NCBI GenBank assembly: GCA_963718375.1
Contig: CAVQZD010000012.1
Span: 2,316-66,315 of the forward strand
Direction: 5' to 3'
Origin: an uncultured Actinomycetes bacterium
GTDB lineage: Bacteria; Actinomycetota; Thermoleophilia; RBG-16-64-13
Length of the DNA stretch: 64,000 bases
Part shown: in pieces, positions 6,243-10,142 of the stretch
Numbering within the stretch: the stretch's first letter is position 1
Layout of the letters: the number at the start of each line of letters is the position of its first letter
Notes under the pieces: model-generated
Database searches by the model: none
Seen by the model: the letters and a program-made list of their open reading frames with translations, nothing else
Told to the model about the DNA's origin: nothing
Position numbers and translations under genes: made by a program

Positions 6243-7090
6243 AGTACGTTCGCCGCTTCGCCAGTCTGGTGAAGTTCGAACACTCCGTCTTCGCCCTCCC
6301 CTTCGCGTACTCGGCCGCCTTCCTGGCCGAGATGAAGGTGCCGGGTTTCTGGACCATGTTCTGGATCACCGTGGCCATGGTGGCGGCGCGCAGCTTCGCC
6401 ATGGCGGTCAATCGGCTGATCGACCAAGAGATCGACGCGCGCAACCCCCGCACCGCCGGACGCGAGCTGCCCTCGGGCCAGCTGAAGCGTTGGCAGGTCT
6501 GGGTCTTCGCGTTCGTATCCCTGGGCGTGCTGATCGGCTCGACCTTCGCGCTGCCTGTGATCACCCGGTACTTGTGGCCGGTAGTGGTCATCCCGCTGGT
6601 TGTCTATCCCTACACCAAGCGTTGGACCTGGCTGTGCCACCTGGTGCTGGGCATCGCCATCGGGCTTGGCCCGGTGGGCGCATGGGTGGCCGTGACCGGG
6701 ACTGCGGACCCGGAGGCTCTCTTGATCGGCGGGGCGGTGGCTTGCTGGATCGCGGGCTTTGACGTCATCTACGCCTTCATGGACATCGAAGTCGATCGAA
6801 AGCAGGGGCTGCACTCCATACCGGCGGATTTGGGCGAGCGCGCGGGGCTGTGGGCGACGCGCATCCTGCACGTGATGGCCGTGGCGCTTCTGGCCGCGGT
6901 CGGGGTCGTGCAAGGTGCCAACTTCGTCTACTATCTAGGGGTGGGCGTGTGCGCGATGTTGCTCGGTTATGAGAACTGGCTGATGCGGAAGGCCGATCTC
7001 CAGAAAGTCGGGGTCGCCTTCATGACCATGAACGGCATCATCAGCGTCGCCTTTCTGTTCTTCACCACGCTCAGTCTCTTCGCAGGGTGA
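6236..7090 (+). CDS. ubiA: UbiA-family polyprenyltransferase (MqnP-type)
   Basis: VKFEHSVFALPFA, NRLIDQEIDARNPRT..RELP, YPYTKR, GFDVIYA. Confidence 0.9.
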   Translation: MLKYVRRFASLVKFEHSVFALPFAYSAAFLAEMKVPGFWTMFWITVAMVAARSFAMAVNRLIDQEIDARNPRTAGRELPSGQLKRWQVWVFAFVSLGVLIGSTFALPVITRYLWPVVVIPLVVYPYTKRWTWLCHLVLGIAIGLGPVGAWVAVTGTADPEALLIGGAVACWIAGFDVIYAFMDIEVDRKQGLHSIPADLGERAGLWATRILHVMAVALLAAVGVVQGANFVYYLGVGVCAMLLGYENWLMRKADLQKVGVAFMTMNGIISVAFLFFTTLSLFAG

Positions 7091-7875
7091 CCAAGGGGTT
7101 CAGGATGGATCAGATGCGGAGCAAGAGTAGCCAGAGACGACCGAGGCGCGACGCCTCCCCCGAACCGGGGAAGGTCAAGAAGATGTTCGACGGCATAGCG
7201 TCGTCCTACGATCGCATGAACGACCTGATGACCGGCGGTCTGCATCATCGTTGGCGGCAGATGGGGGTCATGCTTGCCCGGGTAGATCCGGGCGGCTCCG
7301 CACTGGACGTCTGCTGCGGCACCGGGGACTTCGCCTTCGAGCTGAAGCGCGAGGTGGGGCCGAAGGGCCGAGTGGTCGGCGTGGACGTGTCCAAAGAAAT
7401 GCTCGATGTCGCCCGGGAGAAGTGCGGTCGCAACCAGCTCTATGTGGAGTTCTATGAGGGCGACGTGCTCGATCTGCCCTTCGCCGACGGGGGGCTCAGG
7501 TATGACGCTACGCCCATGGGCTTCGACGCCTGCACGGTGGGGTTCGGCATCCGCAACGTGCCCGACGTGGTGAGGGCGTTCAGCGAGATGCGCAGGGTGT
7601 GCCGTCCAGGCGCGAAGGTAGTGTGCCTGGAGATCACGCAGTCCGACATCCCGGTGTTCAAGCAGTTCTACAAGCTCTGGTTCGACCGGGTGGTGCCCGT
7701 GATGGGCAGGGCGGTCTCGCGGGACAAGGACGCCTACACGTATCTGCCGGATTCGGTGAAGCGGTTCCCCGAGCCGGAAGTGCTCAAGACCCAGATGGAG
7801 TTGGCCGGACTCAAGAACGTGCGCTACGAGATCTTGGCTGGGGGGATCATCGCGATCCATCACGGGGTAGTGTGA
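7087..7875 (+). CDS. menG: demethylmenaquinone methyltransferase UbiE/MenG
   Basis: MFDGIASSYDRMNDLMTGGLH, LDVCCGTGD, GFGIRNV, YTYLPDSV. Confidence 0.92.
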   Translation: MTKGFRMDQMRSKSSQRRPRRDASPEPGKVKKMFDGIASSYDRMNDLMTGGLHHRWRQMGVMLARVDPGGSALDVCCGTGDFAFELKREVGPKGRVVGVDVSKEMLDVAREKCGRNQLYVEFYEGDVLDLPFADGGLRYDATPMGFDACTVGFGIRNVPDVVRAFSEMRRVCRPGAKVVCLEITQSDIPVFKQFYKLWFDRVVPVMGRAVSRDKDAYTYLPDSVKRFPEPEVLKTQMELAGLKNVRYEILAGGIIAIHHGVV

Positions 7876-7961
7876 CTCTCCTGGGGTCACCTGGCTCACT
7901 TTCGCTGAATCCGGCTAACCGCAGGCGCTCAAATGTTCGCCAGGCGACCCCAGGCGAGTCA
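7873..7961. repeat. palindromic element copy A: 22-bp imperfect stem enclosing a 47-bp core (7895-7941)
   Basis: tgactctcctggggtcacctgg pairs with ccaggcgaccccaggcgagtca (2 mismatches); core is the reverse complement of 8845-8891 at 45/47. Confidence 0.85.
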
Positions 7962-8040
7962 TGTATGAGGTGGGGAGGTTCCAAGTCCGCACCGCCGGGC
8001 AACCCCAGCTCGTGTGAGCTGGGCACGGCTAACCGCACGC
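7953..8040 (+). ncRNA. candidate degenerate HDV-like (delta-like) ribozyme
   Basis: Order P2 gtgggg, P3 agg, L3 ttccaagt, ccg, P1' caccgcc, GG-GCAAC, P4 cccagctc/gagctggg, cacGGCTAA, P2' ccgcac; the 5' P1 strand is imperfect. Confidence 0.45.
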
Positions 8041-8047
8041 GCTTGTT

Positions 8048-8079
8048 GGGCCAACGGGCCTTCCGGCTCACTTGCGCTG
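8048..8079. repeat. truncated third copy of the palindromic element
   Basis: gggccaacg matches the stem end of copy B; ggctcacttgcgctg matches copy A ggctcactttcgctg at 14/15. Confidence 0.6.
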
Positions 8080-8139
8080 TGCACGGCTCAGGGTAGGGAC
8101 AGGATGGATCGCGAAGGTGTAGCCCAACCAGAGGGAGGG

Positions 8140-8827
8140 TTGACGAAGACGGTCCACGTCTTGGCCGCATGTTTGCTTGCCACGTGCTGTCTGTTGGTCG
8201 GGGCATGTGGAAGCCAAGACTCGTCGGACATAGAAGCGTCTGAATGGACCCGCATTCAAGGAAGGAATGTCTCTCTCACACTCCCAGTGACATTCAAGGG
8301 CGGATACCCGGGGGAACCTGAAGTCATGTCTACTCTTCGAGGCGGTGGCCTCGTCTTTGTCCCAACCGGAAGACCGGACCGTCTACACTGAGTGGCTGGA
8401 CGGCGTCAACGACCAGCTGTTGATGACTAACGACGGGCCGCCACTCATGGCCTGGGCCGTCCTCGGCGATGGGGATTCCCTGGCCAGCGCAACGGTGTAT
8501 GAGACGCTGCTGCAAAACGTGTCGTTCTTCAGCGATGGGGACACCTCGGTCTTGGGACTGGTGAACGCCTACATGCAGCCGTATCCCGAAGGGACCTGGA
8601 GGATCGAGGAATTGACGGCGAACGGGGCGACGGTAGTGGTGCGGTACCAGGACTCCGACACACAATCCCTCGATTCGGAGTACATCGTCGTGAAGCCCGT
8701 GGGAGAGTGGTTCTACGCTGTCGTCTATTCGTGCGAGGACGAGTATTGGGGGTCGATGTACCCAGTATTCAAAGAAAGCGGCCAGACGTTCACGATTGCC
8801 AGCGCAAGTGAGCCGACCCACACATGA
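8140..8827 (+). CDS. putative lipoprotein of unknown function (frameshift about 8340)
   Basis: GAGGGAGG RBS then TTG; signal peptide TKTVHVLAACLLATCCLLVGA-C lipobox; continues in ORF 8345-8827. Confidence 0.7.
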
Positions 8828-8910
8828 GGGCCAACGGCCCGTCCGGCGAGCATTTGAGCGCCTGCGGTTAGCCGGATTCAGCGAAAGCGAGGAGGACGGG
8901 TCGTTGGCCC
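8828..8910. repeat. palindromic element copy B (inverted): 17-bp stem enclosing the 47-bp core (8845-8891)
   Basis: gggccaacggcccgtcc pairs with ggacgggtcgttggccc (one G-T); starts at the base after the lipoprotein TGA. Confidence 0.85.
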
Positions 8911-8933
8911 GAAGCAGGTGCTAGACTCCCAGC

Positions 8934-10142
8934 ATGTCCGCTGATGAGCGTGTCGATCCGCTTGCCCACATCGAACAGAAGGTGTCCCAAGGGGAGCGCC
9001 TCTCCGCCGCCGATGCCGTAGCCCTGTTCGAGACCCCCGACCTGCCGCGCGTGGGTAGGTTGGCGGACCAGGCGCGCCGTCGAGCAGTGGGCGATGACGT
9101 CTACTTCGTGGTCAACCGCCACATCAACTACACCAACGTGTGCCGCAACCGCTGCGCGTTCTGCGCGTTCTCGCGGGATGAGGGAGCGGCCGGAGCCTAC
9201 ACGCTGACCGTCGACGAGGTTCTCCAGAAGGCGCGGGAGGCGGTGGACGAGGGTGCCACCGAGATCCACATCGTCGGGGGGGAGAACCCGGCCCTGCCCT
9301 ACGTGTGGGTGCGGGAGATGGTGGTCGGCATCCGCAGGATGGACGCCGAGATCCACATCAAGGCCTTCACGGCTTCGGAGATAGAGTTCTTCGCCAAGAC
9401 CGAGAAGCTCCTGGTGGAGGACGTGCTCTTGGACCTCAAAGAGGCGGGGCTGAACAGCCTGCCTGGCGGCGGTGCGGAGATCCTGGGTGCCGGGGTGCGC
9501 GCCCAGGTGTGTCCGGCCAAGATCTCGGGCGAGAGGTGGCTGGAGATCCATCAGTTGGCGCACGATCTGGGACTGAAGACCAACGCCACCATGCTCTACG
9601 GCCATGTGGAGAGCTATGCCGACCGCGCCGACCACCTGGTCCGGCTGCGCGAAGCCCAGGACGAGACCGGCGGCTTTCAGGCCTTCATCCCGTTGGCGTT
9701 CCAGCCTCACAACAACGCGCTCGCTCACCTGCCCGGGCCCACGGGCGTCGACGACCTCAAGGTCATGGCCGTGTCGCGCCTCATGCTGGACAACTTCGAC
9801 CACCTCAAGACCTACTGGGTGATGACTGGGATGAAGCTGGCCCAGATCGCCCTCTTCTTCGGAGCGAACGACATGGACGGCACGGTAGTGGAGGAGGTCA
9901 TCTCGCTGCTCTCTGGAGCGGAACACGGACAGACGGTGAGCAGATGCGAGTTGGCGCGCGTGATAGCCGACGCCGGGCGCATTCCCGTGGAGCGCGATGC
10001 TCTCTATAGAGTGGTGCGGCGTTATGAGGCCGAGGCTGGTGAAGGCGCCGAGGCGGGCGGCGGCGGCCCGGTGGGTGACGGCGCGGGCGCGCAGCCCCGC
10101 GGCGAGGGCGGCCGCGGCGAGGCGGAGGGTGTGACGGGATGA
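8934..10142 (+). CDS. mqnE: aminofutalosine synthase MqnE (radical SAM)
   Basis: NRHINYTNVCRNRCAFCAF, LPGGGAEI, NATMLYGHVE, DNFDHLKTYW; TAGACT 6 nt before ATG suggests a leaderless mRNA. Confidence 0.9.
   Translation: MSADERVDPLAHIEQKVSQGERLSAADAVALFETPDLPRVGRLADQARRRAVGDDVYFVVNRHINYTNVCRNRCAFCAFSRDEGAAGAYTLTVDEVLQKAREAVDEGATEIHIVGGENPALPYVWVREMVVGIRRMDAEIHIKAFTASEIEFFAKTEKLLVEDVLLDLKEAGLNSLPGGGAEILGAGVRAQVCPAKISGERWLEIHQLAHDLGLKTNATMLYGHVESYADRADHLVRLREAQDETGGFQAFIPLAFQPHNNALAHLPGPTGVDDLKVMAVSRLMLDNFDHLKTYWVMTGMKLAQIALFFGANDMDGTVVEEVISLLSGAEHGQTVSRCELARVIADAGRIPVERDALYRVVRRYEAEAGEGAEAGGGGPVGDGAGAQPRGEGGRGEAEGVTG

Follow-up and report, generated by a model that had tools for sequence, protein, structure and literature searches.

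A family of gene-end hairpin repeats in uncultured Actinomycetota, and an inverted pair of its copies around a lipoprotein gene between menG and mqnE

Repetitive extragenic palindromic (REP) sequences of Proteobacteria are imperfect palindromes of 20–40 nt that lie outside genes, mostly at their 3' ends, either singly or as inverted pairs and in many copies per genome, and that are associated with RAYT, a Y1 (HUH) transposase whose gene typically has REPs on its flanks. The ERIC/IRU, Correia and RUP repeats, which resemble miniature inverted-repeat transposable elements (MITEs), are palindromes of ~90–130 nt in which the whole element forms a hairpin and which are intergenic and co-transcribed. 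A third arrangement is that of the pdif modules of Acinetobacter plasmids, in which genes are bracketed by inverted XerC/XerD sites. This report deals with a hairpin element that occurs as two inverted copies (copy A and copy B) around a lipoprotein gene, between menG and mqnE, in a 64,000-nt stretch (the window) of contig CAVQZD010000012.1 of an uncultured Actinomycetes bacterium; the genome carrying it, here G000, comprises 2.44 Mb in 15 contigs and is 96.8 % complete. An earlier note on this DNA had suggested a gene-capture or inversion system. As judged from sequence comparison, the element is an imperfect palindrome of ~85–90 nt with a short 3' tail that appears restricted to one family of uncultured Actinomycetota. 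Its normal place is directly after, or overlapping, a stop codon, in the sense orientation. The reading that we favour, and consider probable, is that of a dispersed REP/MITE-like gene-end hairpin repeat, with the inverted arms around the lipoprotein gene being two copies of it and with no need for dedicated capture or inversion machinery.

The inverted repeat that had drawn attention to the locus was borne out, with positions 7895–7941 matching the reverse complement of 8845–8891 at 45 of 47 positions. The window has exactly two occurrences of a 32-nt piece of this core, one on each strand, a count reached by none of 100 shuffles. Each core also has a closing stem of its own, with 20 of 22 pairs in copy A (7873–7894 with 7940–7961) and 16 of 17 in copy B (8828–8844 with 8894–8910). 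The stems are not unrelated, as had been supposed, since copy B and the third full copy in G000 (the C4 copy, at C4:149521-149609, C-labels denoting contigs of a genome) have a common stem type and are 84 % identical over 89 nt, stems included, and since copy A and the element at the same site in the relative G013 agree at 84 % over 58 nt that take in part of the 3' arm. Both elements begin at stop codons, as had been reported: the first three bases of copy A are the menG TGA (7873–7875), and copy B starts, at 8828, one base past the TGA at 8825–8827, which is itself supplied by the tail of copy B (the reverse complement of 8816–8827). Beyond its 3' arm, copy A has a short tail, TCATGTATG, that runs to ~7967. 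Two covariance models, a narrow one (R1) and one made from six copies (R3), give copy A 101.8 and 95.8 bits, respectively, and copy B 97 and 82.2 bits on the minus strand, the plus strand giving 31.3. The RNA fold of copy A has a predicted energy of −49.3 kcal/mol and a z-score of −6.2 against shuffles; the z-scores of copy B are −5.9 and −4.1, and those of the two together range from −4.1 to −7.8 by strand.

Copies A and B and the C4 copy are the only full copies in G000, and each is adjoined by tandem or partial copies. In the window, these give mirror-symmetric flanks: copy A, one degenerate core and one half copy lie on the left, all of them on the plus strand, and a fragment and copy B on the right, both on the minus strand. 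In both flanks, a full copy bearing the A-type core has, on its side toward the open reading frame (ORF), a partial one with the ancestral form CGGCTCACTTGCGCTG. The half copy, recognized previously as 8048–8079, is real and extends to 8088; it includes 22 nt that are 95 % identical to the G013 core and has blastn matches to the C4 copies. The fragment at 8800–8815 is a perfect 16-nt inverted repeat of 8064–8079 and falls in the last codons of the lipoprotein ORF. Copies A and B have three substitutions in common that are absent from the C4, G013 and half copies, an indication of gene conversion or of local inverted duplication, and the sole differences between their cores (7898 A/G and 7936 T/C) make up one compensatory pair.

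That the element is kept by selection for its structure, one part of the earlier proposal, is upheld by covariation. In an alignment of six element sequences (A3), to which all covariation counts here refer, 31 pairs are predicted and 19 of them have changes on both sides; paired cells amount to 87.9 %, compared with 69.4 % in shuffles (0 of 500 reach the observed value) and 33–38 % when the partners are slid. The conserved part is an apical core of ~47 nt, and the outer stem, the most variable part, covaries. Overall, hairpin z-scores lie between −4 and −8, and many stems include the stop codon (TGACG...CGTCA).

Across relatives, the element behaves as a repeat of gene ends. Run over 151 genomes of the class, R1 recovered it in G000 and G013 only, and the more diverged copies were recovered later by R3, which was run over 61 genomes of the bacterial family and found the element in eight of them at E≤0.01. 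Six genomes have matches of at least 43 bits: G000 (three copies), G010 (11 copies, in an assembly of ~70 % completeness), and G013, G074, G004 and G003 (one each); the matches in G007 and G068 are weak. All copy numbers are lower bounds because the R3 searches scored only 72–150 candidates per genome. Outside G000, 10 of 13 copies start between −2 and +6 nt from the upstream stop and in sense (nine by the ORF table and the G003 copy by a reading of its flank), and the upstream genes are unrelated housekeeping genes (PCC, FeThRed_B, PGI, radical SAM, Cupin_5, Usp, OST-HTH and FTCD), with no cargo. An orthologous Cupin_5 gene end carries the element in both G010 and G004. The earlier note had itself set against its proposal a multi-copy repeat placed independently of cargo, and this is the situation in G010, where 11 copies stand behind unrelated housekeeping genes; with this, and with the solo copies in G013, G010, G003 and G074, a gene-capture or inversion system is not supported. 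The G010 cores are nearly identical over ~50 nt behind unrelated genes, which implies duplication. That genome also has a cargo-free inverted pair, C3:1019648-1019735 (+) and 1019845-1019932 (−), 110 nt apart. Further, five of the 11 G010 copies (L157, L162, L166, L168 and L170) continue past the hairpin into another conserved stretch (...CTGAGCTAC...GGAGGAGCCTCGTGAGTACCCGAACGTAAGCG...), the hairpin there apparently heading a longer repeat unit. A scan of the genome contigs with an exact core pattern gave no matches; the same scan of metagenome contigs gave four loci, all of them chance matches in coding-looking sequence that lacked the 3' part of the core. No described repeat of the same form was located in the literature, although one may have been published.

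At the menG|mqnE junction, the element is present in G000, G013, G010 and G003 as well as in G074, which belongs to another genus, and four of these five genomes have no lipoprotein gene there. The G074 instance, initially a weak match to the first model, is a hairpin that begins inside the menG stop codon; a G010 hairpin lies at the same place, and the cores of both are homologous to those of copy A and G013. Copy A is, by this comparison, to be regarded as the resident menG 3'-end hairpin. That relatives have menG next to mqnE without a lipoprotein gene, a point that the earlier note had asked to be checked, holds for 14 of 14 mqnE-bearing congeners, all with menG directly upstream and with no lipoprotein match. 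Among 13 relatives, 12 menG|mqnE spacers measure 0–360 nt, and that of G007 measures 1,071 nt. At least eight members of the genus have short spacers (0–137 nt) without a hairpin, and the element models have no match at the junction in G005 and G007. G013 has a single element, on the plus strand and right behind the menG stop; G012, as close to G000 as G013 is, has a 9-nt spacer and no element. At the other end, the motif GTGCTAGACTCC occurs in all 14 spacers read (13 congeners and G000), with an exact 12-nt match to G013, and in each of them GTGYTAGACTCC precedes the mqnE ATG by 4–9 nt. The lipoprotein gene is a later insertion, peculiar to G000, between copy A and the putative mqnE promoter motif. 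Since the element usually stands after stops and the lipoprotein gene arrived later, the whole looks like an ordinary family of repeats rather than a novel machinery for gene capture.

The earlier note had placed a single lipoprotein gene between menG and mqnE. The separation is as described, and the gene is read in two frames (coordinates of all features are in Table 1). The first frame (8104–8391) holds the signal peptide, the lipobox and a conserved N-terminal motif, and has a weak codon signal; the second (8345–8827) holds a PsbP/DcrB-like domain and has a G+C content at third codon positions of 0.80. The gene is not an orphan, as had been thought. A word-based protein search with the C-terminal ORF returned only itself, and a protein atlas only unnamed clusters; an exhaustive HMMER search finds 17 proteins, itself included, and one homologue is an integron cassette. 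The homologues are 33–44 % identical. Full-length relatives are lipoproteins of 190–225 aa that cover both pieces, the first frame corresponding to their N-terminal motif, W.T..GR.VSL.LP..FKGG.P.DP, and the second to the rest. Because the homologues span both frames, this is one gene of ~240 codons with a +1 frameshift near 8335–8341. The frameshift may be an assembly error, as hicB and xerC are also split in the G000 assembly. A model of the C-terminal domain has a predicted local distance difference test score (pLDDT) of 86.5, and its best matches in the PDB are DcrB and PsbP-type proteins, at modest template-modelling (TM) scores of 0.37–0.47. Element sequence, namely the fragment at 8800–8815 together with the tail of B, provides the final ~9 codons of the gene (from 8800) and its stop, and this stretch is modelled as disordered. 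No promoter of its own is recognizable for the gene. The cassette homologue (359 aa) is in G004, 2.9 kb downstream of intI (L054 1172-2480, G004:C1:813131-814439). The resident-type attC upstream of it scores 99.7 bits, and a transposase gene of the IS110 family splits its own attC right after GCTAACAAG, an interruption that we take to resemble those made by the attC-targeting IS1111 group. The G012 homologue has RHS-repeat genes around it and is part of a 30-kb island. By these genomic contexts, the lipoprotein family belongs to the flexible genome.

Table 1. Positions of the repeat copies and neighbouring genes, numbered from the first base of the window
Feature	Positions	Strand	Remarks
menG/ubiE, demethylmenaquinone methyltransferase	7087..7875	+	Pfam Ubie_methyltran 3e-68; NCBIfam MenG_MenH_UbiE 232.6 bits
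Element copy A	7873..7961	+	22-nt 5' arm, 47-nt core 7895-7941, 3' arm; sense to menG
Degenerate partial core, without stems	8009..8043	+	From repeat comparison; CACGGCTAACCGCA (14 nt) is identical in the G013 core
5' half copy	8048..8088	+	5' arm of the B/C4 type; ancestral-form core (CTCACTTGCGCTG...), first ~22 nt
Lipoprotein gene, two frames	8104..8827	+	8104-8391 and 8345-8827
Inverted element fragment	8800..8815	−	End of 5' arm; ancestral-form core, first 13 nt
Element copy B	8828..8910	−	Full copy, antisense to the lipoprotein gene
Motif GTGCTAGACTCC upstream of the mqnE ATG	8918..8929	+	Conserved across the genus; right-hand limit of the variable spacer
mqnE, aminofutalosine synthase	8934..10142	+	NCBIfam TIGR03700 492.7 bits, cut-off 434.55

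Taken together, the distribution of the element would fit the following course of events. The element would act as a REP/MITE-like hairpin of gene ends, as a terminator or stabilizer of transcript 3' ends, and would have spread to new gene ends by a putative trans-acting route. The lipoprotein gene may have been inserted into, or have come together with, an inverted cluster of recombination-prone palindromes resembling a bacterial interspersed mosaic element (BIME), and gene conversion could later have homogenized the cores of A and B.

The nearest known kind is REP-like, and in this respect the earlier note was right. The element shares with REP and BIME sequences its form as a dispersed extragenic imperfect palindrome at gene 3' ends, its occurrence singly or as inverted pairs, the presence of partial copies in clusters, and the preservation of the hairpin by compensatory change. 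It differs in its length of ~87 nt, in having a conserved apical core on a variable base, in its low copy number (one to 11 per genome, as lower bounds), and in that no Y1/RAYT gene, for which the earlier note had proposed to look, was found in the six element-bearing genomes. With ERIC/IRU, Correia and RUP it has in common a similar size, a whole-element hairpin, the lack of autonomy, and an intergenic, co-transcribed location. However, its ends vary most, with no conserved terminal inverted repeats found there, and neither a target-site duplication nor a parent insertion sequence was detected.

Several observations weigh against the repeat-family explanation. As RNA, the antisense strand folds 2–9 kcal/mol more stably than the sense strand in 16 of 18 copies, which makes a poor fit to simple sense-strand RNA selection. 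Hairpins A and B have no T-run after them and a terminator scan reports nothing at either, so that a classical intrinsic terminator is not demonstrated. The Y1 transposase (PF01797) was not found in G000, G010 (~70 % complete), G074, G013, G003 and G004 by a search whose control was positive in six of 14 reference genomes, nor was any enzyme recognized that could copy the element. The A...B unit, the C4 insert and the G010 copies showed no target-site duplication at their flanks, the available empty sites being too diverged for exact comparison. Within G000, the usual sense orientation is that of copy A alone, copy B and the C4 copy being antisense to the gene whose stop each follows. Both of these lie at the very edge of DNA absent from the closest relatives, namely the lipoprotein insert and a ~550-nt hicAB insert that is absent from G013 and of which the C4 copy and a tandem half copy form the end. 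Two of the three full G000 copies, as well as all four fragments, border lineage-specific insertions in this way. Finally, in the metagenomic protein P0005, a paralogue of the lipoprotein is fused to the out-of-frame interior of the C4-side hicB, with 18 of 18 residues matching.

Because copies border two independent insertions in G000, mobility may still be part of the history of the element. In its strongest form, such mobility would mean that the copies are structure-recognized ends for recombination or transposition which, in the manner of a composite transposon or of attC sites, mobilize genes in trans and have captured the lipoprotein and hicAB modules; we hold this to be doubtful. Its support comes from the insert limits and the P0005 fusion just described, from the mirror-symmetric flanks with their perfect 16-nt inner and 45/47 outer inverted repeats, from the cargo, a cassette-family lipoprotein and a hicAB toxin–antitoxin pair being typical of mobile DNA, and from the integron machinery of the genome. 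No transposase or recombinase gene lies within ~10 kb of the repeats, as had been observed, but G000 encodes on another contig a full-length integron integrase (C2:81320-82303; TIGR02249 457 bits against a cut-off of 265). Starting 348 nt past its stop, and on the same strand, are 28 attC matches of 89–92 nt, all on one strand, with abundant toxin–antitoxin genes. A solitary off-array cassette at C10:23551-23640 (−) consists of a nucleotidyltransferase/HEPN-type pair and one attC of the resident type, its right end diverging after GTTA, and is as expected for secondary-site insertion. Of published work on integrons, the study of Cury et al. 2016 (PMC4889954) states that its set held no complete integrons among Actinobacteria and that attC clusters without an integron-integrase (CALINs) may arise through secondary-site insertion; the 2021 Ghaly/Gillings review (PMC8618304) has Actinobacteriota integrons as detected; and the attG/SALIN preprint (SALIN, single attC site lacking an integron-integrase; 10.1101/2022.09.11.507474) describes cassette insertion at GWT sites of genomes.

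When placed beside attC sites and off-array cassettes of the SALIN/attG kind, the element is alike in being an imperfect palindrome, of the 57–141-nt type, past an ORF, in that its cargo family is a cassette in G004, and in that G000 has IntI, 28 attC matches on one contig and one solitary cassette. It differs in lacking conserved AAC/GTT boxes and a central unpaired spacer, in its mixed orientation, and in its many copies behind housekeeping genes. The boxes at the stem base, which in attC sites (R''/R') carry a conserved AAC ... GTT, are AAC/GTT in copy B, GAC/GTC in the C4 copy, CAC/GCG in copy A and neither in G013; hence the attC form is found in one of four full copies, and the others covary at that position. 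A model (R2) built from 23 resident attC sites, and specific to the G000 integron, has its 28 matches on C2 and one on C10, and at E≤10 leaves copies A and B, the C4 copy and the G013 copy unmatched. Conversely, the element's own model has no match in the integron array. On both counts, boxes and model, the attC-like half of the earlier suggestion did not hold. An 'inside-out attC' was tried and discarded, local alignments of A, B and C4 to an attC dimer being no better than 500 shuffles. In the same alignment, the half copy, taken as 8048–8097, alone exceeds the shuffles (24 against a maximum of 23). Copy B, moreover, is paired to its very ends, unlike the off-array attC on C10.

Of the enzymes that might mobilize the element, IntI occurs in 14 of the 61 family genomes, and TIGR02249 is present in three of the six element-bearing ones (G000, G013 and G004), was not found in G010, the richest in copies, nor in G074 or G003, and occurs in 11 genomes that have no strong element match. 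Neither IS110 nor Y1 transposases were found in G000, other transposase families not having been searched genome-wide, and no target duplication was seen. The copies without cargo, i.e. the 11 in G010 and the solo ones at menG|mqnE in four genomes, tell against mobilization. As to pdif modules, likeness is limited to a single gene or toxin–antitoxin module between inverted repeats that resemble recombination sites, with a recombinase in trans; the sole dif-like site in the genome (C5:222072-222099, found with a consensus search pattern) is unlike the element core, and the dif/pdif candidate was set aside.

A narrower proposal, which is unlikely in our estimation, retains mobility and joins it to the observed placement: the element would be a structure-specific, non-autonomous module that targets the position behind stop codons, and inverted pairs of it would carry a gene (the lipoprotein gene or hicAB) into operon junctions by means of a putative trans-acting enzyme.

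By another account, which is distinctly unlikely, the hairpins are plain terminators or stabilizers of mRNA 3' ends that evolved in place and were never copied, their likeness being convergent or ancient. Their location directly past stops and in sense, the covariation of their GC-rich stems, and their occupancy of orthologous sites at menG (five genomes) and Cupin_5 (two genomes) are all in keeping with this. Yet in-place origin would not account for near-identical cores of ~50 nt behind unrelated G010 genes, for the further tail common to five of 11 G010 copies, or for the half and tandem partial copies in G000, and a terminator needs no conserved loop sequence and would be expected to have the T-run that is lacking here.

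The notion that A and B are the crossover sites of an invertible segment, so that a surface lipoprotein gene is turned on and off with respect to read-through from the menG operon (phase variation), is very improbable. Near-identical inverted repeats do surround one surface-protein gene without a recognizable promoter, and tyrosine recombinases occur elsewhere in the G000 genome; on the other hand, the gene as assembled carries a frameshift, there is no invertase gene next to it, and the same element stands singly at many gene ends. Contigs from three sequencing runs, with word shares of 6 %, cover parts of menG and mqnE as well as 8359–8707 of the lipoprotein gene, at 95–97 %, and no part of the repeats; no joints were seen in them.

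A cis-regulatory RNA or operator peculiar to the menaquinone (futalosine) operon is scarcely credible, given that ten copies in G010 and one in G004 stand behind unrelated genes, which largely refutes it, that at least eight members of the genus do without the hairpin in their 0–137-nt spacers, and that Rfam has no match at E≤1, even if five genomes, from two genera, retain the hairpin behind menG where the remaining spacer is unalignable. The Rfam 15 scan covered window positions 7000–10000 and gave zero matches. Two further candidates were rejected: a selenocysteine insertion sequence (SECIS), i.e. a hairpin at a UGA, is out because the stop at the same site is TAA in G013 and TAG in G074, and a tRNA-fragment att site is out because the region has no tRNA or other Rfam match and no further genomic copy.

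If the gene-end repeat is rightly recognized, a little-known lineage of uncultured actinobacteria gains a well-defined hairpin family of the REP/MITE-like kind, and the case shows how such palindromes make misleading 'cassette-like' architectures. It is also of use in annotation, since the hairpin overlaps stop codons and since the inserted lipoprotein ORF takes its final codons and its stop from it. Should the family be able to move genes, it would matter more, and its 20 copies constitute a small, testable set of sites.

The site itself is surrounded by a futalosine-pathway cluster, with genes for a UbiD-type decarboxylase, MqnP and MenG on one side and, on the other, MqnE, an MqnA-type protein and MqnC, followed by PdxS/PdxT. 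The motif at 8918–8929 is probably the extended −10 box of a leaderless or near-leaderless mqnE promoter inside the operon. In G007, the junction (L012 401-1468) holds a gene for a BrkB/YihY-family membrane protein on the opposite strand; as this insert has no hairpin element, the menG|mqnE junction takes insertions independently of the repeat.

Outside the window, C2:81320-101910 (L067, L070) is a large chromosomal integron in which the integrase and the cassettes run in the same direction. Frameshifts split xerC (L068 386-1331, on C5 of G000), hicB (L003 1610-1822) and the lipoprotein gene, as well as the mqnE of G012; indel errors in these assemblies are the likely cause, which makes 'pseudogene' calls here unsafe. 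The apgM|hppA site, at which the C4 copy lies, is likewise variable, measuring 26 nt in G013 and holding in G000 a hicA-hicB remnant of ~550 nt with elements (L003 1448-1998, C4:149488-150038); in G012, the same site holds ~30 kb (C4:489652-519900), with RHS-repeat genes and a paralogue of the lipoprotein.

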